Shown here in pieces: positions 3,650 through 29,690 of a stretch of DNA of 57,537 bases; the stretch's first letter is position 1, and every line of letters begins with the position of its first letter. This DNA comes from a virus. Below the pieces are notes generated by a model. That model saw only the letters and a list, made by a program, of their open reading frames with translations, did not search any database and was not told where the DNA came from. The translations under genes were made by a program, and so were the position numbers. The DNA lies in IMG/VR virus record IMGVR_UViG_3300031539_000033. One strand, given 5' to 3'.

Positions 3650-3652
3650 GCG

Positions 3653-3880: not shown

Positions 3881-3898
3881 TGGCGAGGAGGTGATGGC

Positions 3899-5407: not shown

Positions 5408-5594
5408 ATATGGCGCGTGCCAGTGTTGTCATGCGCCCGATAATGGAGCCTGTCCGACGTTTGAACTGGGAGGGAATGGACGCTGCGTCTACTGCGATCA
5501 CGCAAAGGAGTGTCATAGTCTACGGAAGCCTGGAGTATTCAATACGCCGCTTGGCGTAGGCAATGATGCGGCGAAGGCCGCGGAGGAGGCGTGA
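5394..5594 (+). CDS. Small Cys/His-rich protein
   Basis: 66 aa. CKYGACQCCH...CPTF...CVYCDHAKECH. Confidence 0.55.
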   Translation: MMPCKYGACQCCHAPDNGACPTFELGGNGRCVYCDHAKECHSLRKPGVFNTPLGVGNDAAKAAEEA

Positions 5595-5595
5595 G

Positions 5596-9116: not shown

Positions 9117-9197
9117 GGAGGGCCCGTGGCGGCTGGCGGCCGCGCTTGTGAAGCAGGCAAGGAAAGACCTGGCGAAGAGCCTGACGGGGAGGCGCGG

Positions 9198-11449: not shown

Positions 11450-11907
11450 GAGAGGAGCGGCGTTCCGTGACCGAGGCAGACATAGCCGCGGGAAAGAAAC
11501 TCCTCGCGGAGCATCCTGAAATTGGGGAGACCGATCCATCTGTCGCCAATCGAACGCGGGATATACCCGACCCCCTCCACGAGGCCGTGCGGGAACCAGA
11601 TTGCGAGAACTGTGCCGTGGAGTCCTACGAAGACGGCCTCCATGCGGGCAAGCTGCTATTGGCAGATAGCATAGAGTCAATTCTGGAAACGGAGTTGGGA
11701 GAAGACGCTCGCAAAGAAAGCAGCGCGTTCCGCAAGGCCGTGCGGGAGTTGGTGGATGCTGATGATTTCTTATTTATCTGCGAGACGCATAATCGCCTCC
11801 CGAAGGATCACCGGAGATACATTGCGGCTTCAGTTGCCCGAGATGCCCGTAGGCACAAGAACGAAGCATTGAACGAGGTCCGCGACTTGCTGAGGGAGTC
11901 TAAGTGA
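11446..11907 (+). CDS. Hypothetical protein
   Basis: 153 aa. ATGA overlap upstream and GTGA overlap with terL. Confidence 0.6.
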   Translation: MREERRSVTEADIAAGKKLLAEHPEIGETDPSVANRTRDIPDPLHEAVREPDCENCAVESYEDGLHAGKLLLADSIESILETELGEDARKESSAFRKAVRELVDADDFLFICETHNRLPKDHRRYIAASVARDARRHKNEALNEVRDLLRESK

Positions 11908-14980: not shown

Positions 14981-15971
14981 GGCGGCGAATGCCCTTCCGG
15001 GGCGGCTTCCTATCTTGCGAGTCGTCCAGTCATTCGCTCGGAAGTGGGAGGTCTCCTTCCGGCAGCGGTACCGGCCGCCGGAACCGTCGTTGCTCGTGCC
15101 GTTGATACGAGACACCTTCGACGCGGACCTTGCCGTCGAACGGGAGCGAGAGCAGTGGCGTCGGGCGGCTGGATTGCCGGAGCAGAGGCAGCGATTCGTC
15201 CGCAAGGAGTGGCGGGCGAGGATCGTCAACCTGCGGAGCCTGGACGATACGGAGAAGCAGAACCTGGCGGCACAACTCCGGGGCAAGGCGATGCTGGAGG
15301 CCGAGGACTCGACGAGTTCGCTGAGGGTGCTGATGCAGTCCATAGAGTTGCCGGAGAACCTGGACGGACAGTTCCGCGAGGGCTTTCGAAACGCCTTCGA
15401 GGAGGCAATGAAGAACGGATCGAGTAAGGCCGCGGCGCAGTTGGGGTTCGCCGAGGATTGGTTGCTCAAAGACCCGGCGGCGGTCGGCGAGATGGGACAG
15501 TACGCCGGCTACTACGGCGACAGGCTGACGAAGCTCGTGCCGATGGAATGGCAGGTCGAGATTCGCAAGGCGATGATAACGGGACTCGACGAGGGCATGT
15601 CTGCGGCAGACATGGGGAGCGAACTCCGGGGAGTATGGGACAACCTGGAAGGGTGGGAAGCCGAGCGAATAGCGCGGACGGAGGCGGTACGGGCGCGGAT
15701 GGAGGGACGACGCTCGACCTACCTGGCGGCGGGCATACAGATGCTGGAGTGGATATGCGGTCCACGGCCCTGCTCGACGTGTGCTATACGGGCGGGCAGG
15801 CGCTACCCGGTAGGGAGTCGGGAACTGCCGCCGACACCTCATCCGCACTGCGAATGCGATGCTGTAGCGAGTGAGGATGACTTGGACCGACTGCGGGCGC
15901 AGGCGTTGGCCGGGACGGGCGCGATCACGCCCCTGCCGACTCCGATGGCGCCGCGGTATCCGCAGGGATAG
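14904..15971 (+). CDS. MuF / SPP1 gp7-like minor head protein
   Basis: ERIARTEAVRARMEG...PCSTCA...PPTPHPHCECD is the head-morphogenesis F-family C-terminal signature. The start is uncertain (77-nt overlap with portal). Confidence 0.8.
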   Translation: MTAVTQRRENLRLAVRAATTTLALLEAANALPGRLPILRVVQSFARKWEVSFRQRYRPPEPSLLVPLIRDTFDADLAVEREREQWRRAAGLPEQRQRFVRKEWRARIVNLRSLDDTEKQNLAAQLRGKAMLEAEDSTSSLRVLMQSIELPENLDGQFREGFRNAFEEAMKNGSSKAAAQLGFAEDWLLKDPAAVGEMGQYAGYYGDRLTKLVPMEWQVEIRKAMITGLDEGMSAADMGSELRGVWDNLEGWEAERIARTEAVRARMEGRRSTYLAAGIQMLEWICGPRPCSTCAIRAGRRYPVGSRELPPTPHPHCECDAVASEDDLDRLRAQALAGTGAITPLPTPMAPRYPQG

Positions 15972-16385: not shown

Positions 16386-16525
16386 GGCGAGAGCACAAAG
16401 CGAATAACACGCCCGGTCAGCCGCCTAGCTAGCGGCAGGCCGTGAAGCTTCATCACCCCTCGTTCTCGGCCGAGAGAGACCGGGGGGTTTCTATTTGGCC
16501 GGGCGTGGTGACTCATAGAGGCGAT

Positions 16526-19500
16526 ATGCCCAAGGAATACCTCGCCTGCGTGGCGAGCGAAAAGAAATCCGGGAAGTCCCTGGCCGACGCGAAGCGCATC
16601 TGCGCCATCGCGTACCACAAGCGACACGGCAAGACGCCGCAGGAAGCGGCAGGGGAGACGCTAGACATGGCCCAGGTCAGGGACAGCATCGAGGCACAGA
16701 TTCGCGCGGCATTGGAGCGCGGCGACGAGGATGGCGCTACCGAGTTGCGCATCCTCCTGGAGCAGGCGGATTCCGTCGTGATGGAGACACCGCGAAAGGT
16801 GAGGGAGCAGGCCTTCCCGGACGCCCGCGCCTCAATCTACGCGATGGACGACGGGCAAGAGTTCCCCGCCCTTCCGGTGCCTGCTGAGACGTCGCCCCTC
16901 ATGGAGGTCTACGTTCGCATCGACGGCAGCTATGAGGCCGACATGCGGGACATCCGCAAGGCGATCAAGGACGGTTACCAGTCCTTCGGGTCGGAGGAAG
17001 AGTGGGGGCCGAGCCTGGAGGCCACGTTCGGCAACCGCGTGGTCGTCAGTGGAGGCCAGGGGCAGCTCTACCGGGCCGCATGGAAGCGAGGCGAGGACGG
17101 CACGGTATCCCTGGAGGACATTCGCCAGGTGCGGGCCGTTCTGCGCGTTGACGACGCCGAAGCGATTCGCACGGCACCCCCGGCGGGCGACGGCGAAGCG
17201 ACCCTCGCCGGCGATGTTCCAGCGCAAGCCGAGACGACTGAACTCCTCGAAACCTACACCGCCCCCGTCCGAATCGTCGCCGAGAAGGACACGACCACGA
17301 CCGCGGGCAGCACCGACCACCTTATGACGGTGGAATGCCTGCTCGGTATTGCGGACACCCCCACGAAGAATGGGCGAGTCTACCCCAAGGGCCTCTTTGA
17401 GAGTATCGTCGCGGAGTCGAAGGAGGGCACGGCCCGCTCGAAGCGGTGGCTCGGCGAGGGTGACCACCCTGCCGACGGCCGGCCCCGGCTTATGGATACG
17501 GTCTGCACCCCCTGGCGGGACTTGCGGCTCGAAGGCAATCACCTGCTGGGGGCGACGGACGTTATCAACACTAGCAAAGGCGCTGATGTGCAGCGGCTCG
17601 TCCGCAACGGCGTTCCGGTGCAGGTGAGTTCGCGCACTGCCGCTATCACGACTACGGAGGTAAGAGACGGACAAACAGTTGAGATTGTAGATGAGAAGAC
17701 GGCGCTCGCGAACCTCGGCGGCTGGGACTTCGTCCTAGGCGCTGCCGCCCACGAGGGCGATGAGGTCGCGGGCGTTCGCAATTTCAGGGAGAGGGACGGT
17801 CAGCCTGCGGCAGCCGCTTCGGCTCCCTCGTCGAGTGATGTTCCTGGAGAGACCATCGACGAGGTGCTAGACGAAATGACCACAGAAGAGTTGCAGAAGC
17901 TCATCCAGGAGGCCGTCGCCAAGGGCACGACCGCCGGCGTACAGGTCCTCATGGAGACGAAAGGCGACCCGCCTGCCGCGGGTGCCGATCCGCCAAAGGT
18001 TGACGGCGAAGAGCCCAAGCCGAAGACGGAGACGAAGGAACCGGACAAACTTAGTGAGATGTCCGGGCGTATTGATAGCCTAGCCGAAGTCGTTACGACT
18101 TACGTGCAGGGCCAGGCCGATGAGAAGAAGGCTGAGGAGAAGGCCGCGGCCCTCAAGCTCGCTACCACGGCGATCATGGAGACCGACGAGGTCAAGGCAT
18201 GGGAACCGCCAGCGCGCAAGCTCATGGAGCAGAGGTTGGCGGAGGTCACGGAAGTCGACCAGCTTCAGCCGACCTATGAGCGTACCGAGCGCACCCTTCA
18301 GGAGATCGGCCTGCTGATCATCAACCGTCCGGGCGGAATGGGTATTACCGCCGCCCACGTCGCTTCCACCCCCGAAAAGAGCCGCGAGGACCGCGCCAAG
18401 GAGTTCCAGCTTGGCGTACTTTCCCCGCGCTTCCTCCCCGAGAGCCGCGAAGAAGTTCTCGATCTCTTGTGCGAGGGGATTCCCGACAATGGCCTGCACA
18501 GTTCCACCGATCCCGACGACCCGGTTGCGAGGGCGTTGGGCGGGGATGCCCCCTTCCACGGGTACCACCCCGGCAACCCGAATCACGTCTTCCGCACGGT
18601 GGTGGAAAACGTGATCCGCATGTACCCCAACTACCTGATGGCGAACCTACGGCAGTACCGGCCCCAGTTCGCTATGCTCGAATGGACGGGCACCACGAAC
18701 GTCGCGCAGACGGTGCCTTACGTCCTGCCGATCATCCGGCAGGTGTGGGCGCGTCTCCAGTGGGTTATGGAACTGATGAGCGTTCAGCCCATGACGAAGT
18801 CGACCGGCGTGGTCCACTTCCTCGACTTCCTCTACGACCCGACGCTGGGCAACCCGGCTATTCCGGGCGAGTTCTGTTCTGACTACGCTCAGTACGTCTC
18901 TGAACAGGCCACTATACCGCAGGTGAAGCTCAGCCTGACTCACGCTGATATCACCATGGACACGAAGAAGTTGCGGGCGCAGTGGTCGAGTGAAGTCCGC
19001 CAGAACCTGCGGGCAGACCACGGTATCGCTATCGAGGCGGAGATGGTCAACTTCATGGCAGACGAGATCGCCCGAGAGGTGGTCGCCCTGCTCATGAATA
19101 CCATGCGAACCGCCGCGGACCCGGCTGGTAACGTCACCGCCGGCAATGTGAACTTCGGTTGTCTCCTGCCGGCTGCCGGCTACGTCGAACTTGGCACCTG
19201 GCAGAAGGAACTCTACCGGCACATCCTGCAGGCAGATGGCCTTGTCCGGGCGCAGCGACGCGCCCGCACGAATTGGGCCGTCGCCGGGTCGAACGCGCTG
19301 ATTCGACTGATGCGATTAGAGAGTTGGTCGGCAACGACCGTAGACGCGGAAGCCGCCGAGTGGGAAGTCGGTATCAACCGCGTTGGGACCTTGGACGGAC
19401 AGCCGAAGTACAAGGTCTACGGTGCCGACCCCGATTTCTGGCCCACCGAGTTGATTCTCGTTGGGCGCAAGGGTGCGGACTGGTATGACTCGGGCATGGT

Positions 19501-19663
19501 CTACTGCCCGTTCATTCCGCTCTACACCGCTCCGGCGTTTGTCAACCCGGATACCCTCTGTGAGACAGTTGCGGTGATGAGCCGCTTCGGCTACTCCAAG
19601 GTCGTAGGCAACAGCCTTGCGACCGTCACCTGCCAGCCGGCTGTTCAGGGCGTGGGTTGGTAG
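16526..19663 (+). CDS. Prohead protease - scaffold-like linker - major capsid protein fusion
   Basis: 1045 aa. NGRVYPKGLF...GEGDHP...QVSSR resembles the T4 gp21 (S77) protease. The acidic, Pro-rich middle contains EELQKLIQEAV. The C-terminal ~450 aa carries ELMSVQPMTKSTGVVHFLDFLY, a gp23-like capsid motif. Confidence 0.7.
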   Translation: MPKEYLACVASEKKSGKSLADAKRICAIAYHKRHGKTPQEAAGETLDMAQVRDSIEAQIRAALERGDEDGATELRILLEQADSVVMETPRKVREQAFPDARASIYAMDDGQEFPALPVPAETSPLMEVYVRIDGSYEADMRDIRKAIKDGYQSFGSEEEWGPSLEATFGNRVVVSGGQGQLYRAAWKRGEDGTVSLEDIRQVRAVLRVDDAEAIRTAPPAGDGEATLAGDVPAQAETTELLETYTAPVRIVAEKDTTTTAGSTDHLMTVECLLGIADTPTKNGRVYPKGLFESIVAESKEGTARSKRWLGEGDHPADGRPRLMDTVCTPWRDLRLEGNHLLGATDVINTSKGADVQRLVRNGVPVQVSSRTAAITTTEVRDGQTVEIVDEKTALANLGGWDFVLGAAAHEGDEVAGVRNFRERDGQPAAAASAPSSSDVPGETIDEVLDEMTTEELQKLIQEAVAKGTTAGVQVLMETKGDPPAAGADPPKVDGEEPKPKTETKEPDKLSEMSGRIDSLAEVVTTYVQGQADEKKAEEKAAALKLATTAIMETDEVKAWEPPARKLMEQRLAEVTEVDQLQPTYERTERTLQEIGLLIINRPGGMGITAAHVASTPEKSREDRAKEFQLGVLSPRFLPESREEVLDLLCEGIPDNGLHSSTDPDDPVARALGGDAPFHGYHPGNPNHVFRTVVENVIRMYPNYLMANLRQYRPQFAMLEWTGTTNVAQTVPYVLPIIRQVWARLQWVMELMSVQPMTKSTGVVHFLDFLYDPTLGNPAIPGEFCSDYAQYVSEQATIPQVKLSLTHADITMDTKKLRAQWSSEVRQNLRADHGIAIEAEMVNFMADEIAREVVALLMNTMRTAADPAGNVTAGNVNFGCLLPAAGYVELGTWQKELYRHILQADGLVRAQRRARTNWAVAGSNALIRLMRLESWSATTVDAEAAEWEVGINRVGTLDGQPKYKVYGADPDFWPTELILVGRKGADWYDSGMVYCPFIPLYTAPAFVNPDTLCETVAVMSRFGYSKVVGNSLATVTCQPAVQGVGW

Positions 19664-19701
19664 TCTGAACGGTACCGACTGGACTGACTGACGCAATGAG
19701 T

Positions 19702-19730
19702 GGGGAGGGCGGCGATCTGTCGCCCTCCCC
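19702..19730 (+). terminator. Perfect GC hairpin after the capsid gene (attenuator or terminator-like)
   Basis: ggggagggcg / cgccctcccc 10-bp stem with a 9-nt loop; no U-tract. Confidence 0.45.
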
Positions 19731-19749
19731 TACATTCCGGGAGCCTCGG

Positions 19750-21852
19750 ATGTCAGAAACGGTAAAGGTACGAAATACGTCCAGGGTCGATCAGCTTTCG
19801 GGCATTTGGTTGATTCGCGCGGGCGAGACAACGGTTCTGCCAATTAACGCACTAGGCGGTTTCGGGTCCTCGGTAGAGGTCATCGACGATCCGACCACAT
19901 CGAATATGACGCTCTATCGAACCCCCTGTATGCCGGGTTGTGGGCATTCCCTCTGCACACTCTCACGGCAAGTCACTCTGGCACTGCAACGCATGGGCTT
20001 CTCGGTGGACCGGCAGACGTGGCGAGCAAATCGTGACCAGCCCCCGATAGGAAAGAGTCTGCTCTGCAACGCGGGGACATTCGAGGGGCCGTCCGGTTCC
20101 TGGTCATGGTTTCATTTCGACAATAGCATCGCGCCACGTAATCACGTCGCGTACTTCTTAGAGCACTTCACGGGGAACATCTGCGTAAGCGGTGCCGTGC
20201 GAGATGCCCTGAGTGCGGCAGGGGTATCGGAGGACCGCCTGCGGGTCATTCCGAATGGAATCGATACATCGCTGTTTTGTCCTGACGGTCCGATTATGGA
20301 TATTGGCGGCAACTCATTCATCTTCGCCATGGTCGGCGCTATGTCGCCTCGCAAGGGCGTTGATGTCGCGCTGGAGGCTTACGGGCAGGCATTCAAGCGT
20401 TCCGACAAAGTTCTGCTCGTAGTCAAGAACTACGACTATGGCCGCGATGCTTGGTGCCGGGAGATCATTGCCGAATGGCGGAAGCGACTCGGCAGTAAGG
20501 CACCGCGGGTCGAGTATATATATCAGATGGGCATGGGCAATTCACAACCGCCATGGATGGATAGCGAAGTTGCTGCATTCTACCGGCGCGCCGCGCAGCA
20601 CGGCGCGTATCTCGCGCCAGCACGAGTCGAAGGGTTCGGCTTGACGGGATTGGAGGCGCTGGCCTGCGGCTGCCGACTCGGTACTACCGGGTGGAGCGGG
20701 CAACTCGAATATGCTACAGATGAGAACGCGCACTTGTTCCCCTACATGATGGCCCCGAGCAACAACAACCTCGGTCTCTATGAGGCTGACGAAAGGCCGC
20801 TGTGGGCCGAACCCGACCTCGCGGACGTCGCCGACTGGATGCGGCGGGTATTCGAGGAGTCGCCCGACGAGTTGAAACAGAGGGAGATCGCCGAGGACCT
20901 GCGGCAGCGATTCACATATGCGCGCATGGCCCGCGGTATCGCCGATGTCTTGGGACTGAAGGAGCGCCGAGGACCCGAAACCGTCCGCGAGTCTGTTCCA
21001 GGGACTCCACTCGCGAAATCCAGCGGTGCCGCGGTTCTCGGCGCCCCCAGTCCGCCAGGGATGGAAACGCTCGGCGTAGGTATCCCCACGAGAGATAGAC
21101 CGGGATACCTCGCGATCTTACTATCGGCGCTCTACGTGCAGACGAAGCGCCCGAATGCCATCTGTATCGTGAATGATGGCGAACCAACCTTACGAGACAA
21201 TTCCGCCGTCAAACAGATGGTCGAGCGCTGGGAGCAGAGCGGTATCCCGTGCGATATAGTCCAGGGTTCGGGAAGGGGTGCCAGTCCGAACCATCAAATC
21301 GCGCTAGAACATCTCGGGACCGATCTCGTCCTAAGAATTGACGACGACCTTCTGCCAGCCCGACCGGATTTCATAGAGCGTCTTTACCGCTTGATTGATA
21401 ACCAACCCGAAGTCGGGGCCGTCGGCGGCTGCTATCCCATGCACAGCGATGGAGTCCTGCATGAATACGGCCCTCTTGCCACCAAGCGAGGGATGACGAA
21501 TACGCTGGCCGATCTGCTGGCCGGCCATGCGAGGCTGCAGTTCTGGCAGTTCTCCGACGAGGCGGTCGTGGAGTGCGAACACTTATATTCGACGTGGATG
21601 TATCGGGCGAGTGCGCTCCAGGAGGTCGGCGGGTTCGCGGATTGCTATAGCCGGTTCGGACAGCGGGAAGAATCCGATGCGAGCGTTAGGTTGCACCTTC
21701 TCGGTAAGAAGAAGTTACTCGTTGACACCCAGGCCCTCGCCTGGCATTTCCTCGCTCCAGGTGGCAGACGGCCCGAGGGTACGCGGGAGAGGGCGCTCGC
21801 TGATGATAAGGTATTCCGCGCAAGGGTCGCGCAGTGGAGGGCGCAGGCATGA
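19750..21852 (+). CDS. Bifunctional glycosyltransferase (GT4-type GT-B domain + GT2-type GT-A domain)
   Basis: PARVEGFGLTGLEALACG (GT4 E-x7-E region); LGVGIPTRDRPGYLAILLSALYVQT...VNDGEP...RIDDDL (GT2 DxD). The ATG at 19696 would place the hairpin inside the ORF. Confidence 0.8.
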   Translation: MSETVKVRNTSRVDQLSGIWLIRAGETTVLPINALGGFGSSVEVIDDPTTSNMTLYRTPCMPGCGHSLCTLSRQVTLALQRMGFSVDRQTWRANRDQPPIGKSLLCNAGTFEGPSGSWSWFHFDNSIAPRNHVAYFLEHFTGNICVSGAVRDALSAAGVSEDRLRVIPNGIDTSLFCPDGPIMDIGGNSFIFAMVGAMSPRKGVDVALEAYGQAFKRSDKVLLVVKNYDYGRDAWCREIIAEWRKRLGSKAPRVEYIYQMGMGNSQPPWMDSEVAAFYRRAAQHGAYLAPARVEGFGLTGLEALACGCRLGTTGWSGQLEYATDENAHLFPYMMAPSNNNLGLYEADERPLWAEPDLADVADWMRRVFEESPDELKQREIAEDLRQRFTYARMARGIADVLGLKERRGPETVRESVPGTPLAKSSGAAVLGAPSPPGMETLGVGIPTRDRPGYLAILLSALYVQTKRPNAICIVNDGEPTLRDNSAVKQMVERWEQSGIPCDIVQGSGRGASPNHQIALEHLGTDLVLRIDDDLLPARPDFIERLYRLIDNQPEVGAVGGCYPMHSDGVLHEYGPLATKRGMTNTLADLLAGHARLQFWQFSDEAVVECEHLYSTWMYRASALQEVGGFADCYSRFGQREESDASVRLHLLGKKKLLVDTQALAWHFLAPGGRRPEGTRERALADDKVFRARVAQWRAQA

Positions 21853-22820
21853 TTCTCGTAGTAGGCATTGACGGCTACTCCTACGACTGGCGGCACTGGC
21901 TGGAGGAAGACGGCTTCCATACCGGCGTTCTGGATTCCCCGCATGCACTATCGGGTCCCGCCTGGACGAGCATCTTCACGGGGTTGACGGCGGAGGGGCA
22001 TGGTATCCCGCACGTCCCACAGCCGCGAATGCTTAAGGGCCTGAAGCGGCCGCCCTATGTATGGGACCACCTCGCGGCCGCGGATATGGAAACGGTGGCG
22101 ATCAATGTGCCCTTCACGTACCCGCCCCGGTTGGTGCGGCGGCTTCTCGTCTGCGGGTATCCCGCGCCCGAAAAGAATCGGACATTCCCGCGGCAGGCGG
22201 CGGTGGATTGGGCATGGCGCGACCTCGACCTCTACTACGCGCATCAAGGCGAGCCCTCCTGGGATTTCCTCGCCTGTCCAGACAAGGACCTGATGGAGAC
22301 TTGCCATGCTGCCCGGTGGGCACTCGCGCACAGATTCCTCGTGGAACTCAAGAAGGGGCAGCCCGATCTCGCCATTCTCTGTTTGACGGACCTGGACAGA
22401 CTCGCGCATTATGCCTATCGGACGTTCCGGCAGAAGCGGACCCTGAAGAGCATCGTGGCGGATATACGGGTGATGCTGCAGCGGTTCGAGTTCACTCTCT
22501 ACCCCGAATGGACATTCATTGTTTCCGACCATGCGCTGGATTTGACCGATGAACCCCGCGAGGGGGATGGCTGGGGTCTATGCCATGGGCCGAACTACCC
22601 GGCGACGCGGCGCGGAATCATCGCCTACAAGGGCCCACAGGCACGGCCAGTCGAGAATTTGGAAGTGAGTGTAGAAGACGTTACTCCCACGCTGCTCTAC
22701 CTGCTCGATGCGGCCCCCTCACGGCGGATAGAGGGGATAGCATTGACGCAGATCACCGAGGGCGGGGCGGTAGACGAGGCCGAAATTCGACGACAACTGG
22801 AGGGTCTAGGTTATGCCTGA
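21849..22820 (+). CDS. Alkaline-phosphatase superfamily enzyme (type I phosphodiesterase / nucleotide pyrophosphatase-like)
   Basis: ILVVGIDGYSYD...LSGPAWTSIFTGLTAEGHGI...FIVSDHA. ATGA overlap with the GT gene. Confidence 0.7.
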   Translation: MILVVGIDGYSYDWRHWLEEDGFHTGVLDSPHALSGPAWTSIFTGLTAEGHGIPHVPQPRMLKGLKRPPYVWDHLAAADMETVAINVPFTYPPRLVRRLLVCGYPAPEKNRTFPRQAAVDWAWRDLDLYYAHQGEPSWDFLACPDKDLMETCHAARWALAHRFLVELKKGQPDLAILCLTDLDRLAHYAYRTFRQKRTLKSIVADIRVMLQRFEFTLYPEWTFIVSDHALDLTDEPREGDGWGLCHGPNYPATRRGIIAYKGPQARPVENLEVSVEDVTPTLLYLLDAAPSRRIEGIALTQITEGGAVDEAEIRRQLEGLGYA

Positions 22821-23511
22821 GGGCAAATGGGACCCAGGGACTTCGATGGACGCGCTCTGGGACCGACTCGCGAAAGAGAACTCGACGAGTGCCATCTGCT
22901 ACCGGGCGAGTCCCGAATGGTTTGAGGAGAGCGGGCAGAGGGACGCCAAGTATCTCGCCGGCCTGGTCGATTTCTTCTTCGAGGATCGTGCCGCGGTGAC
23001 GGTTCTCGATATCGGCGGGGGCACCGGCAGGACGGCCAAGTATCTCGCCCCAGTCGTCGGGACCTACCACCTGCTCGACGTAAGCGGCGAGATGCTGCGG
23101 CAGGCCGCCGAGCGGATGCCAATTATGACGCAGGGTGGGAAGGTCGTGCTCGTAAAGGGCAGCGGATATTCGCTGGAAGCCATCAAGGATGGTGCTATCC
23201 AGTTTGCTTTCTCCCACATGGTCTTCCAGCACATGGACAGAGAGGTAGTGGTCCGGTATCTGCGCGACCTGCCGCGCGTTCTGACTGACGATGGCATAGC
23301 ATGGCTTCAGGTTCCAGCGATGCGCTATCCGCAGCGATTCGAGGAGGCTGACCGGGGCGACTGGCCGGCGAACTTCCGGCGCTGGTATCCCGGCGAACTG
23401 CTTGAGGTTTGCATGAGGGCGGGGCTCTCTATAATCGCGGCGGACTGCGACGCGCTAGAAGTGATCGTTGCGAAGCCCCCGGCGGTGCCATGGCTTGGCG
23501 GGAGCGACTGA
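22813..23511 (+). CDS. Class I SAM-dependent methyltransferase
   Basis: VTVLDIGGGTGRTAKYL...LLDVSGEML (motif I and post-I). Confidence 0.8.
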   Translation: MPEGKWDPGTSMDALWDRLAKENSTSAICYRASPEWFEESGQRDAKYLAGLVDFFFEDRAAVTVLDIGGGTGRTAKYLAPVVGTYHLLDVSGEMLRQAAERMPIMTQGGKVVLVKGSGYSLEAIKDGAIQFAFSHMVFQHMDREVVVRYLRDLPRVLTDDGIAWLQVPAMRYPQRFEEADRGDWPANFRRWYPGELLEVCMRAGLSIIAADCDALEVIVAKPPAVPWLGGSD

Positions 23512-24134
23512 TGGACACGGCGACGATACCACAGACGCCCGACAACGAACTGATGGCGTTGAAATGTACCCCGCACCCTAAACGGGTTTGGGGTTACCTA
23601 CAGGAGGATGAGGCGCAGCGTCTTACGTGGCTCGCGGCGCGGGTGCCCGCAGACAAGGCTATCGTAGAAATCGGTTCCCTCCGCGGGCGGTCGACGTGCC
23701 GGCTCGGATTGGGTGCCGCGGCCGGTCTGGGCGCGCACGTCTGGGCTATCGACACCTGGGGACCGTATAGTCCGGCAAGCGGGCTGAAGGGCGGGGACCA
23801 ACACCGCGAGCGCTTCGATTTCAACATTGACCTTTTCGGGCTGGGGGCGCAGGTGACGCCCATTCGAGCCGACTCCAGGGAAATCGCGAAGGTCTGGCAG
23901 CGAGAGATTGGACTGCTCTTCATTGATGGCGAGCATACCTATGAAGGGATACGCGGCGACTACGAGGGGTTTCATGAGCATGTAGTAGCAGGCGGCTGGT
24001 TGGCTATCCATGACTATTACGAGGACTGGGTGGACATCATACGGTTCGTCAATGAGACGGTCTTTCCATCCGACGATTGGGAGACCGCGAACCTGCGATG
24101 CACCCTGCTTACCATGAGGAGACGAGAGAGCTAA
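23511..24134 (+). CDS. Class I SAM-dependent methyltransferase (Methyltransf_24/CmcI-like)
   Basis: IVEIGSLRGRST...AIDTW...LLFIDGEHTYEG...GGWLAIHDY. TGATG coupling; alternative ATG at 23490. Confidence 0.7.
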   Translation: MDTATIPQTPDNELMALKCTPHPKRVWGYLQEDEAQRLTWLAARVPADKAIVEIGSLRGRSTCRLGLGAAAGLGAHVWAIDTWGPYSPASGLKGGDQHRERFDFNIDLFGLGAQVTPIRADSREIAKVWQREIGLLFIDGEHTYEGIRGDYEGFHEHVVAGGWLAIHDYYEDWVDIIRFVNETVFPSDDWETANLRCTLLTMRRRES

Positions 24135-24364
24135 TGGCCATGGAGGTAACCGCCAAACGGGATGCCATGGTGGTTCGTCAGGCGGGGCAGTCGGGAACCG
24201 GAACTATGTATCGCCGCTGGTTCGATACCTGCCTGCACAACCGACCGGACTGCCCCCGGATTTCCGGAGAGGACGTGATTGCGATTTCGGAAGGACAGGC
24301 GCGGAGCATGATGGGTTGTGGTTGGTACCCCTGCGCCGTTTGCGCGCCAGGGTTATTCTGGTAA
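24134..24364 (+). CDS. Small Cys-containing protein
   Basis: 76 aa. TAATG coupling. ...CGWYPCAVCAPGLFW. Confidence 0.5.
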   Translation: MAMEVTAKRDAMVVRQAGQSGTGTMYRRWFDTCLHNRPDCPRISGEDVIAISEGQARSMMGCGWYPCAVCAPGLFW

Positions 24365-24374
24365 GGATATCCAC

Positions 24375-25337
24375 TTGAATCTCGCCCACATAGCTTTCTA
24401 CAAGCGGAGCGAAGGACACCCTGGCGGTGTCCCTTTGTTTGGCCATTACGTGGAGCAGCAGCTCGGCGCGCGGCTTTACTCGTGGTCGGACATGCCGCAG
24501 AAGGCGCGAGTAGACGAGGCTGGCGCGGCTGATCTGCTAGGGCGCTGGCTTGTCTCATCGGGCGCGCTGAACGACATTGAGGCGGTTATCGTGGACGGTT
24601 TCTGGGGCCGCGGACTGGTGGACTTTGACGGCCCGGTAATCTCGGTGGCCCATGGAACCTGGAAGGGCATTGGACTGGCCTGCAATTCAGCGGAGGCTAT
24701 GCGGCTCGGCGAGATACAACAGGCCGAATACCGGCGGCTACCCACCGTAGCTGTTAGCCACTATACCAAGTGGGAGTTGCAGGGTATGTACGGAGTCGAG
24801 CCGGCGGCGATCATCGCCAACGGACTGGACCTAGACGAGTACCAGCCGCGGCAGCATCCGGCGCGGGAACGGCCCATCGCAATCTATCCGAGCGACGCCA
24901 TGCCGAAGGGCGGGGATGTGATAGCGGCACTCGCGAGGAGGCGGCCCGATATCGAGTTCCGACTGATCGGGGCGGGGATCGGAGCAGAGGCCGAAGCTAT
25001 AGCTGCTGGAGACATCTTCGTCTCCCCGTCCCGCGCAGATGGCTGCCCCTATGCGGGATTGCAGGCGTTGGCTTGTGGACTACCGATTGTGGCGAGTGAT
25101 GTGGGACTGTTCGCCGACATCGAAGGCGGCATGATGAATGGCCTGCCAGTTGGGGAGACAGTGCCGGTGGTAGCGACGGATGACGCGGCTGTCGAGCAGT
25201 GGAGTCAGGCATTGACGCGGGTTCTAGCGCGGCGGCAGGCGGTTTCGCTGGGCGCGCGAGCCTGGGCCGAGGAGTTCGGCGGATTAGATAGGTGGGAGGC
25301 GGACTGGCGAGAGTTTCTCCAGGGAGCGATGGGCTGA
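24375..25337 (+). CDS. Glycosyltransferase family 4-like (GT-B)
   Basis: FVSPSRADGCPYAGLQALACGLPIVASDVG. TTG 24375 lies 7 nt after AAGGA; the ORF is also open from ATG 24318. Confidence 0.7.
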   Translation: MNLAHIAFYKRSEGHPGGVPLFGHYVEQQLGARLYSWSDMPQKARVDEAGAADLLGRWLVSSGALNDIEAVIVDGFWGRGLVDFDGPVISVAHGTWKGIGLACNSAEAMRLGEIQQAEYRRLPTVAVSHYTKWELQGMYGVEPAAIIANGLDLDEYQPRQHPARERPIAIYPSDAMPKGGDVIAALARRRPDIEFRLIGAGIGAEAEAIAAGDIFVSPSRADGCPYAGLQALACGLPIVASDVGLFADIEGGMMNGLPVGETVPVVATDDAAVEQWSQALTRVLARRQAVSLGARAWAEEFGGLDRWEADWREFLQGAMG

Positions 25338-25639
25338 TGCCGACGACTATGCGAGACATCACGCGGAAAACGTCCGCTGCTCACGCCTCACCTCCCGTTC
25401 AGGGGCAGACGGCCTCGCCAACCGACCTGCCCCTGGACACCTGCGGCGCCTGTGAAGCGTCCCTATTCGGCCAGTTCGAGCCGGTGGCCGCGGGCGATAC
25501 GGGGCTCTATATGAGCCAGGACCGTAGAGCGCGCGAGGAAACCGGAACCTCGCAGCCTCGCGACTTTAAGTGCCGGCAGTGTGGACGAATCATGCGGCGG
25601 GTTCCCGACGATATCGACGCGCAGGTAATCGGTATGTAA
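25337..25639 (+). CDS. Small zinc-ribbon protein
   Basis: 100 aa. TGATG coupling. CGACE...CRQCG. Confidence 0.55.
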   Translation: MPTTMRDITRKTSAAHASPPVQGQTASPTDLPLDTCGACEASLFGQFEPVAAGDTGLYMSQDRRAREETGTSQPRDFKCRQCGRIMRRVPDDIDAQVIGM

Positions 25640-25667
25640 TCGCCTTTAGCTATCGCCATAGTGGAGA

Positions 25668-25698
25668 GGCCCCGCACCTATATAGGCCGGGGCTTTTA
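25668..25698 (+). terminator. Rho-independent terminator
   Basis: ggccccg...cggggc stem followed by TTTT, in the 85-nt gap before the connector genes. Confidence 0.6.
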
Positions 25699-25724
25699 TA
25701 TGGCCAGGAGAGAGTCACCAACGC

Positions 25725-26438
25725 ATGACCAACGTAGAACTCATCGCGGAACTGAAACTGCTCGGTTTCGGGGCGGGGCTGACTGACCCGCAGTGGACGC
25801 AGGCGGTTAAGGACGCGGTCCGCATGTATTCCAGGCAGCGGCCGCGCCACGTACTTGGGACGATTGCGGTAAGTGCGGACGTAGAGGAGTACAGCCTTCC
25901 CGCGGGCGGCTATCTCTGTATTGAGTTGGCCCCCATCGACGCACTAGAGGATTTGAGCGAACTGATCGGCGACACCTCGACCCTATCGGAGGCGCTGGCC
26001 GCCGGCGACGTGATTATGGACTTCAACCAGCCTTCGCAGGTGGATATCTACCGGCAGAAGTTGGAGCACTGGGCGCGGCAGTTCGGGACGAAGTGGGAGC
26101 AGGATATGCCGGGTGGTACGGTTCGCATCATGCCTCGCCCGGAGAGTGCGACAACCCTGGCGGTGATCTATACGGCATGGCACGCTACTGCCGATACGGT
26201 ACCGACCGAGGACGCCGATCTGCTCATTATGGCGGGCAAGGCGGTGGCGACGGCAGTGATGGCGACGGGCGGTGCGGCGACGGTAGTGGCCTCTGGCGGC
26301 CGCCTGACTCTCGGACCCTACACGAAAGATATGGGTGGAATCGGAACGATGGTCGCTTCGTTGTTCAAGCAGGCAGAGGCGCTAGAGAAAGACTTCCTCG
26401 ACGCGGCCCGACTCCCCGCGGCGGCGTACAAGGCATAG
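25725..26438 (+). CDS. Virion protein, possible head-tail adaptor
   Basis: 237 aa. First gene after the terminator. The N-terminus NVELIAELKLLGFG...AVKDAVRMY recalls gp6-like connectors. Position-based call. Confidence 0.4.
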   Translation: MTNVELIAELKLLGFGAGLTDPQWTQAVKDAVRMYSRQRPRHVLGTIAVSADVEEYSLPAGGYLCIELAPIDALEDLSELIGDTSTLSEALAAGDVIMDFNQPSQVDIYRQKLEHWARQFGTKWEQDMPGGTVRIMPRPESATTLAVIYTAWHATADTVPTEDADLLIMAGKAVATAVMATGGAATVVASGGRLTLGPYTKDMGGIGTMVASLFKQAEALEKDFLDAARLPAAAYKA

Positions 26439-26441
26439 ACG

Positions 26442-26813
26442 ATGGCAGACGCTGAACTTCAATCACTGCTTACCCATACCGCCGATATCTACTACCTCGA
26501 TACGGGCGAGGCAGTGGATGGGCAGGTCCTGGAGGGTTACCCGGATGCCCCGGACCTCGCCGACCACCCCTGCGCTATTCACCAGGATGGGAAGATTCTG
26601 ACGGAGAGTCCGGTCGGCTACCTGATCGAGAGCGATGCCATCATGTACTCGGAGGATGCAGTCATTCCCGAACGCGCTAAGGTCGTCTGGCAGAATCGCA
26701 TCTTCTTCGTGAACGGGACCCCAAGTCGCTATCACGACTACCTCGGGCCGACCCCGAACATACCGCACCTGCTGGAGATCGGACTCCGGGAATCAAAGGA
26801 CCAACCGGCATGA
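26442..26813 (+). CDS. Putative head-closure / head-tail joining protein
   Basis: 123 aa. Position between the adaptor and the gp10-like gene. C-terminal ...VVWQNRIFFVNGTP...LLEIGLRE pattern. Confidence 0.45.
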   Translation: MADAELQSLLTHTADIYYLDTGEAVDGQVLEGYPDAPDLADHPCAIHQDGKILTESPVGYLIESDAIMYSEDAVIPERAKVVWQNRIFFVNGTPSRYHDYLGPTPNIPHLLEIGLRESKDQPA

Positions 26814-27358
26814 TTGGCGTTGCGGTGAGAATCGAAAAGGCAGACGAGCTTCGCAGGTGGGCCGATGATCTACCGGACCAGTTTCAGAAGCGGTCATCGC
26901 TCCTAGTCGGCTCCTATGGGCTCCGCATAGAGCGGGAGGCGAAGCGACGGACACCCGTGGCGACGGATATCCTACGTTCCAGTATCCACACCGACATCAG
27001 TCGGCAGGGGAAGCAGACGCGAGCGAAGGTCGGCACCGACGAGGACTACGGCCCGTATGTAGAGTACGGGACCGGACTCTACGGGCCGCAGAAGCGGGCC
27101 TACGAGATCAAGCCGAAGACGAAGAAGGCGCTGGCGTTTACGGCGCGAGCCGGAACGCAATTGGCGACGGGTCGGGCACTGTTCCGCTCCAAGACGGGCC
27201 GGTTGGTACTGAGCCGCAAGCGGGGTGCCAAGACCATCGTCCGCAAGGTCATCCATCCCGGCATTCACCCGCAGCCATACCTGCATCCGGCGTTTGATAA
27301 GTATGTGCCGTTCTTTATGAATGACCTTCGGCAACTCGTGACGGGATTGGGGGGGTGA
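26810..27358 (+). CDS. HK97 gp10-family neck/tail-joining protein
   Basis: 182 aa. TPVATDILRSSIH...DEDYGPYVEYGT... typical of the HK97 gp10 family. ATGA overlap. Confidence 0.7.
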   Translation: MIGVAVRIEKADELRRWADDLPDQFQKRSSLLVGSYGLRIEREAKRRTPVATDILRSSIHTDISRQGKQTRAKVGTDEDYGPYVEYGTGLYGPQKRAYEIKPKTKKALAFTARAGTQLATGRALFRSKTGRLVLSRKRGAKTIVRKVIHPGIHPQPYLHPAFDKYVPFFMNDLRQLVTGLGG

Positions 27359-27359
27359 C

Positions 27360-27824
27360 ATGGCGATCCTGACAACCGGGTTTAACACGGCAGCACAGGC
27401 GGCTGCGATCCTCACCAAGCTCCGCACAGAGTTGGCGGGCATGGGGGTCGATGTTGTAACTCGTGGCCGCCTCTGGCGCCTGCCCGACAGACCCTGCGTG
27501 GTGCTTATCGGCCCCTCTATCGAGATCGAGTCCTTGGGGATCGGCGTCGAGGAAGGGGTATGGCATTGGCTCATCCTGATCGCCCGCGATATCGGCCACA
27601 ATGACCGGCGCGCCGACTTGCTCGATACCTGGGGCGATACCGCCATGGCGGCGCTCCTCGACCTCACGCGGGAGACCGCCGCCTTCGTCGTACAGGGCGG
27701 CGACGGACCGGGGCGCGTGGAGGACCAGCGCCTGCTAGGACTGATTCAGCAGCATGGCGAGCAGATAGACCCCATACTGCTGGAGATGACGACCCGCAGG
27801 GAGATCAACCCGCCATCATGCTAA
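27360..27824 (+). CDS. Putative tail completion/terminator protein
   Basis: 154 aa. Position only. Confidence 0.35.
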   Translation: MAILTTGFNTAAQAAAILTKLRTELAGMGVDVVTRGRLWRLPDRPCVVLIGPSIEIESLGIGVEEGVWHWLILIARDIGHNDRRADLLDTWGDTAMAALLDLTRETAAFVVQGGDGPGRVEDQRLLGLIQQHGEQIDPILLEMTTRREINPPSC

Positions 27825-28849
27825 GGATGCGCGCGATACGGAGCTATGGTGCCCAGAAGGTTCGATACCCTCTGGGCGTCGTCCATTTCGACGAGTCCAA
27901 GGGCTGGCTTGCGCGAGTTCCCGAGTCCCTCGCGAAGGAATTGGTCGACGCTGGCCAGGTAGAGATTCCACGAGCAGAGGAACTATGCGTGGGTCGGTAT
28001 CTCGTGCGCCGGCGTTCCGGCTTCGGAGACGTTCTATGCCTTACCCCAGCCGCGCGGATGCTGATGGATAATGGGGCCGAATGCCAGATCATCACCCACC
28101 CGAACTACGCGCCGATGATAAACGGCCTTGGGAATGGTATCCACTGGGAATCGCCCGTGCATTCCGTGATCATGGACGGCTGGCTCGAACATCATCCGGG
28201 CCGGACCGAGAGACCGGCGGCGCTCTGTTTCGGCGACTACTGGAATTTCGACATTGAGGATGCGCGGCCCCACTTCGCGCTTACCGAGCAGGAAGTCGCT
28301 ATGGGTAGGGAGGGCGTCGAAGGCTGGCGTCGCGAAGGCGAGCCCGTCGTCGCGGTCTTTATGAAGACGGGTTGGGAGTCGCGGCGATACCGCGGGATGC
28401 TGCGCGTCGCGAAGGACCTGGCACACGAGGGCTGTGCCGTCGTCGGCTTCGGCGATGAGATTCTGCCCTGCTGTAAAAAGCCGCCGGCGATGGATATCCG
28501 GTCTTTGGCGGGGCTCCTGGCGGCTTGTGACCTTGTTGTTTCGGGCGACACAGGGCCGATGCATCTAGCGGCTGCCCTGGGGGTGCCGTCCGTCGCCGTC
28601 TTCTGCGCCACTTCCGCGGCCGGGTCTGTGGGGCCGCGTTACGATGTAACAGCACTTGAGCCCGAGGGGCTTGACTGCTGGCCGTGCTGGAATGCCGACT
28701 GCAAGGTCGGCGAGTTGGACGTCCCTGGTTCTTGCGTTTCGGCTGTAGAGCCGACGCAGGTCGTTTCCGCGGCGCTTGAGCGACTGCGCTCGCCTGGGCC
28801 GCGAATAGACCCTCAAGGAGACAGGGACGATGAAGGGAGCATACGGTAG
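27818..28849 (+). CDS. Glycosyltransferase family 9 (heptosyltransferase-like)
   Basis: LRSLAGLLAACDLVVSGDTGPMHLAAALGVPSVAVF and the C-terminal CWPCWNADC...CV are the GT9 hallmarks. Confidence 0.8.
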   Translation: MLRMRAIRSYGAQKVRYPLGVVHFDESKGWLARVPESLAKELVDAGQVEIPRAEELCVGRYLVRRRSGFGDVLCLTPAARMLMDNGAECQIITHPNYAPMINGLGNGIHWESPVHSVIMDGWLEHHPGRTERPAALCFGDYWNFDIEDARPHFALTEQEVAMGREGVEGWRREGEPVVAVFMKTGWESRRYRGMLRVAKDLAHEGCAVVGFGDEILPCCKKPPAMDIRSLAGLLAACDLVVSGDTGPMHLAAALGVPSVAVFCATSAAGSVGPRYDVTALEPEGLDCWPCWNADCKVGELDVPGSCVSAVEPTQVVSAALERLRSPGPRIDPQGDRDDEGSIR

Positions 28850-29690
28850 GTGTTTCTATGGTACACAGGGTGCGAAGGGAATCCCTGCGGTGGGCTATTC
28901 CGCCCTGGGCATTATCGACCGGCCGCACATGAATGTGCCGAGCGGTATCGAGCCGCTCTATTCGGTCGGTGACTGGGACCCCGTCGAACTCAGCGAAGGG
29001 ATGACGCTGGCGGAGGTCGGCCTTAGCATTACGGCCGTAGAGGACCCACACTTCCTCCAGTACGCCAAGCGAAGCGCGGTCACTGGCGAACTCCAGTGGC
29101 TGACGATCAAGATCGGATACCATAAGGGCGCGGATGTCTACCGCGCGATCATCCAGGACTGCAAGATCGGCGATATCACGATGCGGTGTGACGCCGGCGG
29201 CCGCCTGAATGCCGACGTAAACCTGATCGGCGGGAAAGTCGCACAGCTCGCAGCCGACCCCGGTGATATGTCGTTCTTCTCCTCTCGTGCCTACCGCTGG
29301 TTCGAGATGACATGGGACGAGACGCGGGACCTGCGGGCGTTCGAGTTCTACTGCCGCAATGGCCTGGAACCCATGCCGGTGATCGCGGGGACCGTGACGA
29401 CAAGGGACCCTGAGCGCATATGGGACTTTCTCGATGAAGGGCCGTCAGAGATCGGTGGGACACTGACCTATTTTCTCGCCGATGCAGACGTCGATCTTCA
29501 GGACTGCCTGCTAGCGGGAGCCGATCACGTTATGACATTTTGTAGTTGTTCCGATGTCAGCCCCGCGCAGACTATGACGCTGACGCTGAACGGCCTGAAG
29601 GCACGGAATGCCGATCTGCAGATTCCGGCTCGCGGCGACATCGTCGTCGAGATGCCATATCTGCTGACGGACTGGACGCTGGATGGATAG
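28830..29690 (+). CDS. Major tail (tube) protein
   Basis: 286 aa. Directly upstream of the chaperone/frameshift pair and the tape measure. Position-based call. Confidence 0.6.
   Translation: MKGAYGRCFYGTQGAKGIPAVGYSALGIIDRPHMNVPSGIEPLYSVGDWDPVELSEGMTLAEVGLSITAVEDPHFLQYAKRSAVTGELQWLTIKIGYHKGADVYRAIIQDCKIGDITMRCDAGGRLNADVNLIGGKVAQLAADPGDMSFFSSRAYRWFEMTWDETRDLRAFEFYCRNGLEPMPVIAGTVTTRDPERIWDFLDEGPSEIGGTLTYFLADADVDLQDCLLAGADHVMTFCSCSDVSPAQTMTLTLNGLKARNADLQIPARGDIVVEMPYLLTDWTLDG

Follow-up and report, generated by a model that had tools for sequence, protein, structure and literature searches.

Glycosylated phage particles have, to our knowledge, been established experimentally for only a few mycobacteriophages, whose glycans protect the particles against antibodies. 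Here we describe a cassette of seven genes situated between the capsid and adaptor genes of an uncultured virus, IMGVR_UViG_3300031539_000033 (57,537 nt, analysed over its whole length and referred to below as the window), together with an eighth, GT9-like gene that lies directly upstream of the tail-tube gene. Gene order inclines us to regard the cassette and the GT9-like gene as a phage-encoded virion glycosylation system with two stations, one at the capsid gene and one at the tube gene.

Virion glycosylation is described for the mycobacteriophages Che8, Corndog, Myrna and members of cluster O (Freeman et al. 2023, as relayed in passages of PMC11600133, PMC12363180, PMC11256854 and PMC12619734). 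According to a passage of one of these sources, the known glycosylating mycobacteriophages include temperate members in clusters F and I as well as virulent ones in cluster O (PMC12363180); a passage of another reports that in cluster O an O-methyltransferase and three tandem glycosyltransferase (GT) genes modify capsid and tail tube (PMC11600133). In Corndog, gp36-38 immediately precede gp39, the gene for the capsid maturation protease, within the head gene block, and Che8 gp108-110 are found at the far right end of the genome. The window shares the cluster O layout, in which GT genes and a methyltransferase lie by the head genes: it has three GT genes with four GT domains, and two methyltransferases. 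An initial annotation of the window had matched its combination of glycosylation and methylation to no described system. Given the precedent of cluster O, which already has an O-methyltransferase and head-block placement, neither the methylation nor the position beside head genes is new.

The likeness to Che8 and Corndog lies in phage-encoded soluble GTs accompanied by a methyltransferase, with capsid and tube targets that are here proposed from the genes alone. It is a likeness of kind and not of sequence. Che8 gp108-110 and Corndog gp37/38 were compared with all window proteins (blastp, phmmer) and gave best E-values of 0.014-0.6, that is, at the level of chance, whereas the control comparison of Corndog with Che8 gave 5e-99 and 2e-58; homology to the proven GTs Che8 gp109/gp110 (Corndog gp37/gp38) was rejected on these values. 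When 50,697 phage genomes were searched with tblastn, the first cassette protein, a GT4-GT2 fusion, found two weak partial matches, and the GT9-like protein and the second GT4 of the cassette found none. The window further differs from Che8 and Corndog in its enzyme families (a GT4-GT2 fusion, a GT9 and an NPP-fold enzyme), in having two stations (the 3′ end of the capsid gene and the 5′ end of the tube gene), in its T4-like head with a fused protease-capsid gene, and in its environmental setting. To judge from the sequence, it is these features that appear to be new: enzymes unrelated to the proven ones and of other families, an alkaline phosphatase (AP)-fold enzyme, the two-station layout, the fused T4-like head gene and the environmental, probably non-actinobacterial setting.

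A parallel in function is provided by the chloroviruses. The PBCV-1 protein A064R is a GT-GT-methyltransferase that acts on the capsid glycan, and this protein and A111/114R are examples of virus-encoded, multidomain, cytoplasmic GTs that build and O-methylate a capsid glycan independently of host machinery (PMC7826918). Chloroviruses are giant viruses of eukaryotes with atypical N-glycans, however, and in the window the methyltransferases are separate genes.

The cassette between the capsid and adaptor genes

The cassette follows a + strand gene (16442-19663) that family searches identify as a fusion of prohead protease, scaffold-like region and major capsid protein in a single product of 1073 aa (Pfam: Peptidase_S77 3.8e-9, aa 294-437, and Gp23 3.8e-38, aa 815-1058; PHROG: head maturation protease and major head protein). 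Seven + strand open reading frames (ORFs) fill positions 19750-25639, between the capsid stop codon at 19663 and the adaptor gene at 25725; they amount to 5.9 kb, or 10.3% of the 57,410-bp genome (12% if the GT9-like gene is included). Successive genes overlap at 21849 (ATGA), 22813 (8 nt), 23511 (TGATG), 24134 (TAATG) and 25337 (TGATG), as read from the sequence. The initial annotation had reported seven coupled genes after the capsid gene: all its ORFs, motifs and start/stop overlaps are present, and a Pfam scan of the cassette ORFs bore out its enzyme families, with matches to both GT and methyltransferase profiles.

The first gene encodes the GT4-GT2 fusion (19750-21852, +; 700 aa), recognised by Pfam and by alignment of homologues. 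Among metagenomic contigs related to the window (designated by L-numbers), the fusion gene comes first after the protease-capsid gene in all eight informative lineages – the window, L010/L048, L016, L001/L052, L004, L005, L017 and L050 – over a range of capsid identity of 42-91%. In the distant members of this clade the cassette proteins are 45-57% identical to those of the window, against 42-51% for portal and capsid. Relative to an 85% relative, the ratio of nonsynonymous to synonymous substitution (dN/dS) is 0.075-0.13 for the enzymes and a 100-aa ORF (0.13 for the latter) and 0.29 for a 76-aa ORF; structural genes range from 0.09 to 0.22. The GC content of the cassette, including GC at third codon positions (GC3), is similar to that of neighbouring genes. 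The initial annotation had described the cassette as spliced into the structural operon. Shared presence, divergence in step with the head proteins, low dN/dS, which denotes strong purifying selection, and matching composition instead show it to be an ancestral, selected part of the head module.

Gene content nevertheless varies within this conserved position. L005 has an additional NAD-dependent epimerase/dehydratase gene and further methyltransferase genes, L010 a gene resembling UDP-glucose/GDP-mannose dehydrogenases, and L001 an extra 264-aa protein with no assigned function; L004 is without the gene for the NPP-like enzyme. In L016, a 74%-identical relative, ∼5 kb (∼16470-21327) separate the gene for the 100-aa protein from the adaptor gene. 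This additional DNA encodes proteins of 858 and 478 aa that have no assigned function.

A GC-rich stem-loop follows the capsid stop codon (19702-19730, +), with 12 pairs including one G.U, a 5-nt loop and no U-tract. It had been reported in the initial annotation and is real: the spacer between capsid gene and cassette (19664-19749) has a minimum free energy of -39.8 kcal/mol (z = -3.2). Since the fusion starts at 19750, the hairpin is intergenic. Hairpins of different sequence occupy the same position in L001, L005, L016, L017, L010, L055 and L069, and one is present also in L063 and L068, which have no cassette. Occurring with or without a cassette downstream, the hairpin belongs with the 3′ end of the capsid gene and does not delimit the cassette. 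It is probably a general element that sets expression ratios at the capsid gene, and likely acts either as a 3′ mRNA stabiliser or as an attenuator that lowers expression of the enzymes downstream.

At the other end of the cassette lies a hairpin followed by TTTTATAT (∼25666-25696, +), a possible weak terminator that had been thought to close the block. Its spacer is not unusual (z = -1.1), a terminator scan did not call it, and it occurs only in this phage and near-identical copies. Four relatives have no spacer at this point: in L001, L004 and, going by ORF coordinates, also L010 the gene for the 100-aa protein runs into the adaptor gene, and in L005 the two genes adjoin. As it is neither significant nor conserved, the hairpin was rejected as the boundary of a unit. 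A promoter scan of the spacer 19664-19749 found no sigma-70-like promoter, a consensus from which the promoter type of the host may differ.

Over the fusion ORF (19696-21852), Pfam returns Glycos_transf_2 (1.4e-9), Glyco_transf_4 (3.2e-9) and Glycos_transf_1 (2e-8). The GT4 domain scores above cut-off on PF00534 (34.4 bits, cut-off 26.4) and PF13439 (37.5 bits, cut-off 28.5), and the GT2 domain on PF00535 (38.6 bits, cut-off 23.3). E294 and E302 of the EX7E motif are invariant in the former, a GT-B module that belongs to the retaining CAZy family GT4; in the latter, a GT-A module of the inverting CAZy family GT2, D531 and D533 of the DxD motif are invariant and D532 nearly so. They are preceded by an N-terminal domain of ∼130 aa with invariant C60 and C64-G-H-S-L-C69. 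A search of 5.8 billion clustered proteins produced 11 close homologues (50-98% identity), all metagenomic, and among 1.84 billion representatives at 50% identity there are only two full-length clusters. All 11 homologues are 694-721 aa long and align from the ATG at 19750, which is thus the start, and not 19696. Both the GT4 domain of the fusion and the second GT4 of the cassette also score on the Pfam family GT4-conflict. The GT4 domain of the fusion in addition matches between three and seven repeats within multi-glycosyltransferase proteins of 1000-5000 aa, at ∼30-34% identity per repeat; the only named protein among these matches (2621 aa) is from a Chloroflexota metagenome-assembled genome (MAG).

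The second gene (21849-22820, +) encodes a soluble protein of 323 aa that is assigned to the NPP type of the alkaline phosphatase superfamily from Pfam, an AlphaFold2 (AF2) model and Foldseek. Its match to Phosphodiest (PF01663; E 9.8e-5, 22.5 bits) falls 0.5 bit under the 23-bit cut-off; the assignment is secured by its orthologues, most of which carry PF01663 on record, by conserved residues and by a confident model (pLDDT 91.4). The metal-site residues D8, D183, H187, S226, D227 and H228 are invariant in an alignment of 17 sequences. Foldseek matches the model to ENPP6, NPP1 and Xac NPP (5e-9 to 1e-7, TM 0.53-0.60) and, more distantly, to sulfatases. The sulfatase motif C/S-x-P-x-R is absent; the sequence at that point reads S-G-P-A-W. 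At the putative nucleophile position, most phage copies have Ser and cellular homologues Thr. On this evidence the protein belongs with the NPP/phosphodiesterase-type enzymes of the superfamily, its fold being a predicted one.

Two methyltransferases follow. MT_A (22813-23511, +; 232 aa) is a class I S-adenosylmethionine (SAM)-dependent methyltransferase (Pfam Methyltransf_25, 6.2e-13; Methyltransf_11, 2.6e-12) with orthologues in L001, L005, L010 and L016. MT_B (23511-24134, +; 207 aa) is a SAM methyltransferase of the Methyltransf_24 type (PF13578, 1.7e-19). In other viral contigs a Methyltransf_24 domain of the MT_B type is fused between GT2 and GT17 domains. Such tri-domain GT2-Methyltransf_24-GT17 proteins (676-748 aa) are encoded by L013, L014 and L015, which are viral contigs of 35-149 kb, and by L009, a contig labelled ‘uncultured archaeon’. 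In each the tri-domain gene is followed by a GT2 gene whose product is ∼30% identical to the GT2 domain of the window, and primase-helicase genes adjoin; in L009 the pair also adjoins a gene for a 990-aa collagen-repeat protein.

The proximity of these nearest GT2/MT24 homologues outside the clade to primase-helicase genes, together with the PHROG label of the MT_B family (‘DNA methyltransferase’), brings DNA hypermodification into consideration, in which the GTs and methyltransferases would decorate bases such as 5-hydroxymethylcytosine before or during packaging and so protect the genome against restriction. Phage GTs do place hexose, HexNAc or heptose on DNA, sometimes near structural genes (bioRxiv 10.1101/2023.12.21.572611). 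DNA-glycosylation clusters (C5-MT/5mYOX/GT; Pyle et al.) resemble the cassette in their several GTs, sometimes epimerases, and occasional location near structural genes, and the window encodes a short C5-cytosine DNA methylase (56360-57121; 253 aa, 1.7e-48) and, from family search, an N6/N4-type DNA methylase (9126-10469). However, no 5mYOX (Tet/JBP dioxygenase) or ThyS (thymidylate-synthase-type hydroxymethylase) was detected in a scan of every unannotated + strand ORF of at least 150 aa and part of the shorter ones. Nor are the GTs beside a DNA methylase: ∼20-30 kb lie between the cassette and the gene for the C5 enzyme. An oligosaccharide would be a better fit for three to four GT domains and two methyltransferases of non-DNA type, and this reading offers no explanation of why the genes adjoin those of capsid and tube so strictly. 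We consider modification of DNA highly improbable.

The remaining genes comprise a further GT and two small Cys-containing proteins. The 76-aa ORF (24134-24364, +) has five Cys and is restricted to the closest relatives, being 64% identical in L010 and L011 and found only there. The second GT4 (24375-25337, +), a GT-B enzyme, matches Glyco_trans_1_4 (PF13692; 1.8e-10, 41.7 bits, cut-off 27) with a conserved D/E-x7-Q/E motif, and has orthologues in all relatives for which context is available. Its ORF is open from a GTG at 24318, but comparison with L010 suggests that translation probably starts at the TTG at 24375, giving 320 aa as in that relative; with this start there is no overlap with the 76-aa ORF. 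Last before the adaptor gene is a 100-aa CxxC...CxxC (zinc-ribbon-like) protein (25337-25639, +), conserved at 41-81% identity in L001, L004, L005, L010, L016, L038 and L039, which may stand outside the glycan chemistry. Neither small ORF has a family match in Pfam, nor the 76-aa ORF in PHROG or NCBIfam. No cassette protein contains a hydrophobic 19-mer typical of a membrane span, and Rossmann or EX7E motifs account for the two highest values. In an NCBIfam scan of the cassette and GT9-like proteins all matches were far below curated cut-offs, and we therefore give none of the enzymes a specific name.

A GT9-like gene at the tail tube

The list of sugar enzymes in the initial annotation, correct as to the seven cassette genes, was incomplete: it missed a gene at 27818-28849 (+) for a 343-aa GT9-like GT-B transferase (PF01075, 1.9e-13; 50.7 bits, cut-off 22). 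The 3′ end of this gene overlaps by 20 nt the tail-tube gene (28830-29690, +), whose product matches Phage_tube_2 at 3.9e-5, below the cut-off; tube orthologues in L001, L004, L038 and L039 are listed with Phage_tube_2 and bear no mark of a weak match. In all seven contigs that have both genes (the window, L001, L004, L036/37, L038, L039/40 and L044) the tube gene comes immediately after the GT9-like gene, and the two often overlap. In L005 no homologue of the window tube or GT9-like gene was found, yet the cassette stays with the capsid gene. L016 encodes a GT9 homologue (P0044) elsewhere on its 34-kb contig.

The AF2 model of the GT9-like protein (pLDDT 89) shows a GT-B fold after a beta-rich domain (aa 1-57). 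Foldseek matches (1e-9 to 1e-11) include a Veillonella GT9 structure (3tov, 8e-12), TibC (1e-10, TMq 0.60) and WaaC/WaaF; with PF01075 above cut-off and a GT-B fold like that of solved GT9 structures, the protein belongs to CAZy family GT9. Its 16 close homologues (48-100% identity) are separated by a large gap from cellular GT9 proteins.

TibC, which glycosylates protein in the cytoplasm, is of interest as a structural counterpart. Its N-terminus forms a beta domain, and it also possesses a four-Cys finger (PMC4358343). In outline the GT9-like protein recalls TibC/AAH: its predicted fold is GT-B of the GT9 type, preceded by an additional beta-rich domain, and four clustered Cys (C287/C290/C295/C306, invariant) lie in its C-lobe. 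TibC has the top TM-score and the lowest root-mean-square deviation (rmsd) among PDB matches (TMq 0.59-0.60, rmsd 4.3-4.6). The N-terminal domain is, however, 57 aa long, as against a 97-aa barrel in TibC, and by sequence the protein falls outside the BAHT (TibC/AAH) family. The Cys cluster is common to ordinary cellular GT9 homologues and was for this reason rejected as a hallmark of TibC-type protein glycosylation; the N-terminal beta domain is not found in these homologues. A mixed GT9 profile matches WaaF (lipopolysaccharide (LPS) heptosyltransferase II) at 9e-46 and TibC at 2e-3, and a phage-only profile does not reach TibC at E <= 1. With the cluster shared and the profile nearer to WaaF, the resemblance to TibC is a lead and not a demonstration. 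The possibility that the N-terminal domains of the GT4-GT2 fusion and the GT9-like protein are a shared ‘docking’ domain was rejected (hhalign probability 0.4%).

The affinity with WaaF bears on an alternative already raised in the initial annotation, namely that the enzymes remodel glycans of the host envelope. Their substrates would be glycan intermediates, lipid-linked or of the cell wall, at the membrane's inner face. Two settings are conceivable: the lysogen, where the outcome would be seroconversion or superinfection exclusion, and the late stage of infection, where the change might for instance keep progeny from sticking to debris. The phage is temperate, with a tyrosine integrase gene (48490-49470, - strand). 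Pathways for polysaccharides and the LPS core typically involve GT4, GT2, GT9 and AP/sulfatase-fold enzymes, and the best of the sub-threshold NCBIfam matches are to exopolysaccharide, heptosyltransferase and similar families. Moreover, morons classically occupy such a slot, behind a capsid gene and with a hairpin on its upstream side, to which this phage adds one on the downstream side.

Seroconversion modules (gtrABC, O-acetyltransferases), on the other hand, consist of integral membrane proteins, are usually located by int/att, and are expressed in the lysogen. They share with the window the presence of GT genes on a temperate phage; here there are no membrane proteins and the cassette is far from the integrase. 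A gtrABC-like module (flippase, bactoprenol GT, GT-C) was not recovered, there being neither a membrane-span 19-mer nor a Pfam match, and no polymerase or O-acetyltransferase was found in the cassette. The genes lie on the same strand as the late structural genes, are translationally coupled on both sides in relatives, have no sigma-70-like promoter in the spacer in front of them, and track capsid and tube over deep divergence and module swaps. Were the host a member of the Chloroflexota, an LPS core would also be an unlikely target. Lysogenic conversion is weakened by the coupling to late genes and the lack of membrane proteins; we carry envelope remodelling forward as a rival that we think unlikely.

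Distant relatives and genome setting

Distant relatives with Gp23-type capsids were recovered by a metagenome scan with the capsid alignment, and L045/L046 by the tube alignment. In L055/L075 a 900-aa protease-capsid fusion is followed by a single GT4 (374 aa) and then the adaptor. L055 (9098-10222, 12270-14230) has, in addition, a GT9-like gene after the connector genes, as in the window, and beside it a 291-aa ORF weakly similar to the GT2-MT24-GT17 proteins. In L064/L070 the capsid gene is followed by a gene for a 591-aa GT4 protein (L064 8861-10636), and in L069/L053/L054 two GT9 genes follow the capsid gene, with that of a 320-aa protein between them and that of a 110-aa protein after them, ahead of an SU10-type adaptor gene (L069 10506-13772). 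In L063 and L068 the adaptor comes directly after the capsid gene, with no GT; their capsids are only ∼25-28% identical to that of the window. The capsid/adaptor junction is thus a variable hot spot, with other GTs or none, but only at much greater evolutionary distance. Comparison with relatives lacking the insert, as the initial annotation suggested, is accordingly feasible with L063 and L068, but only across this distance: the eight informative lineages of the clade all carry the cassette.

L045/L046 (L046 being IMGVR_UViG_3300033149_004108) present a different combination. The tail module is homologous to that of the window, with a tube 55% identical, but the head module differs, having an XkdF-type protease and a lambda-E-type capsid, and the tube gene is not preceded by a GT9 gene. 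At 1936-6615, flanked by its prohead protease and scaffold genes, L046 encodes a GT2, a GT4, an AP-fold enzyme of the Sulfatase family, and two proteins that are GT1-like and GT-A-like, respectively; none has detectable homology to the window enzymes. L045/L046 were for this reason rejected as a clean relative without the insert: they have an unrelated glycan cassette of their own in a different head module. In this group of phages different GT families have settled repeatedly beside capsid and tube genes, and an AP-fold enzyme recurs.

A junction that tolerates gene gain and loss could also be occupied by accident. The product would then be something other than a decorated virion – a modified non-structural protein of phage or host, a free oligo- or polysaccharide released at lysis, or a small molecule – and the position would reflect no more than a permissive site. 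The 76-aa and 100-aa Cys-containing ORFs could serve as substrates or carriers, and the scores of both GT4 domains on GT4-conflict fit here as well. Yet independent acquisition of different GT families at the same two structural junctions, and again in a different head module, is hard to obtain by chance, and PADLOC found no defence-system relative beyond a generic methyltransferase match, on which ground a defence or anti-defence system was rejected. We hold this explanation to be distinctly unlikely.

As to the genome as a whole, an exact 127-bp direct repeat at the ends of the window (1-127 and 57411-57537) indicates a complete circular assembly of 57,410 bp. The + strand carries nearly all genes, and GC content is ∼0.62 throughout, with no dip at the cassette. 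Family searches of the sequence give a temperate, siphovirus-like layout: TerL (11904-13394), portal (13403-14980), MuF-like head protein (14904-15971), the protease-capsid gene, the cassette, adaptor and neck genes (25725-27824), and, 3′ of the tail tube, chaperone, tape measure and tail proteins, with an Amidase_3 endolysin and YqaJ and RusA recombination genes also identified. The head-tail adaptor gene (25725-26438, +), which forms the downstream edge of the variable junction, is of the SU10-adaptor type: PF24175 SU10_adaptor is matched by orthologues in L005, L039 and L069, and the window copy has no direct family match. The protease-capsid fusion is kept in relatives (807-1206 aa), and the genes are separate in more distant ones. 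A T4-like head gene set is here merged into one ORF, with an acidic scaffold-like middle, in a siphovirus-like temperate genome of 57 kb. One tail protein (38360-39607) contains a right-handed beta-helix domain (Beta_helix, 8e-9) of the type usual in tailspikes that bind or degrade polysaccharide, which suggests a glycan receptor on the host.

The phage appears to have no cultured relative: a blastn search in distant mode with 19000-26500 found no match among the 50,697 phage genomes, and the best matches of the capsid protein are to T4-like phages at <=29% identity. The genome contains no tRNA genes, which were sought as a clue to the host. Two weak hints – a 42-kb phage-like contig labelled ‘Dehalococcoidia MAG’ and the similarity of the fusion's GT4 domain to repeats of giant multi-GT proteins, one of them from the Chloroflexota MAG – point to a host that is perhaps a Chloroflexota bacterium. 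The host is probably not an actinobacterium.

Proposed glycosylation of capsid and tube

The initial annotation had put the cassette forward as a candidate virion glycosylation system. This remains the best-supported reading and gains from the comparative synteny; the chemistry and the targets are inferred. Cassette and GT9-like gene lie within the late structural operon (TerL, portal, MuF, protease-capsid, adaptor, neck, tube, chaperone, tape measure), all on the + strand; the enzymes are soluble, their catalytic motifs are conserved, and so are their positions beside the capsid and tail-tube genes. The positive case is one of association, in that linkage to the two proteins most abundant on the particle's surface is both conserved and convergent.

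Virion glycosylation might proceed as follows. Late transcription would read through the capsid gene, and the stem-loop after its stop codon would hold the enzymes down to the amounts that catalysis requires, as opposed to those of structural proteins. Drawing on host nucleotide sugars in the cytoplasm, the GT4-GT2 fusion together with the second GT4 would build an oligosaccharide directly on exposed residues of the capsid protein, the proposed acceptor. The product would be a short chain with three glycosidic linkages, its sugars O-methylated by MT_A and MT_B. The NPP-fold enzyme could add or trim a phosphodiester-linked substituent, or process a nucleotide-activated donor. At the second station the GT9-like enzyme, with its phage-specific N-terminal beta domain, would glycosylate the tail-tube subunit, possibly from an ADP-heptose-type donor. 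Accessory gene swaps (methyltransferases, epimerase/dehydratase, dehydrogenase-like gene, loss of the NPP-like gene) would alter the glycan in a way comparable to the diversification of O-antigen loci, and the coat so formed on the particle could shield it, disguise it or adjust how readily it sticks.

Several observations weigh against this reading. The phage and all its relatives are metagenomic, so that the system is known from its genes alone. The enzymes have no sequence similarity to the proven enzymes of Che8 and Corndog. A comparison of capsid and tube C-termini found no shared acceptor motif, unlike the situation in mycobacteriophages, and the capsid has no C-terminal extension, the Gp23 profile running to <=15 residues from its end. 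The synthesis of envelope polysaccharide and of the LPS core ordinarily employs GT4, GT2, GT9 and AP-fold enzymes; as many envelope-glycan enzymes are peripheral and without membrane segments, the solubility of the cassette proteins is compatible with lipid-linked acceptors. The GT9 profile is nearer to WaaF than to the protein heptosyltransferase TibC, and the homologous tube of L046, which has no GT9 before it, shows that a tube does not need this enzyme.

A broader proposal, which we advance only tentatively, concerns the group as a whole. A group of uncultured phages that have T4-type (Gp23) capsids and perhaps Chloroflexota hosts may keep two ‘glyco-slots’ in the structural operon, one after the capsid gene and one before the tube gene, where O-antigen-like exchange of genes for GTs, methyltransferases, sugar-modifying and AP-fold enzymes would generate lineage-specific virion coats. 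The GT9-like protein would in that case be a new kind of protein glycosyltransferase acting on the tail tube, and virion glycosylation a widespread modular trait of environmental phages rather than a peculiarity of actinobacteriophages.

If the cassette does serve virion glycosylation as in the mycobacteriophages, the trait would have evolved independently with unrelated enzymes, its linkage to capsid and tube genes would be strong enough to outlast deep divergence, and it would diversify by gene swapping. The annotation of ‘auxiliary’ GT genes beside structural genes in metagenomic data would change, and new protein glycosyltransferases would become available for the glyco-engineering of phage particles. 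Ecological questions would also follow as to what a glycan coat does in soil, sediment and water, where it may bear on adhesion, on resistance to proteases and grazers, and on recognition of the host.

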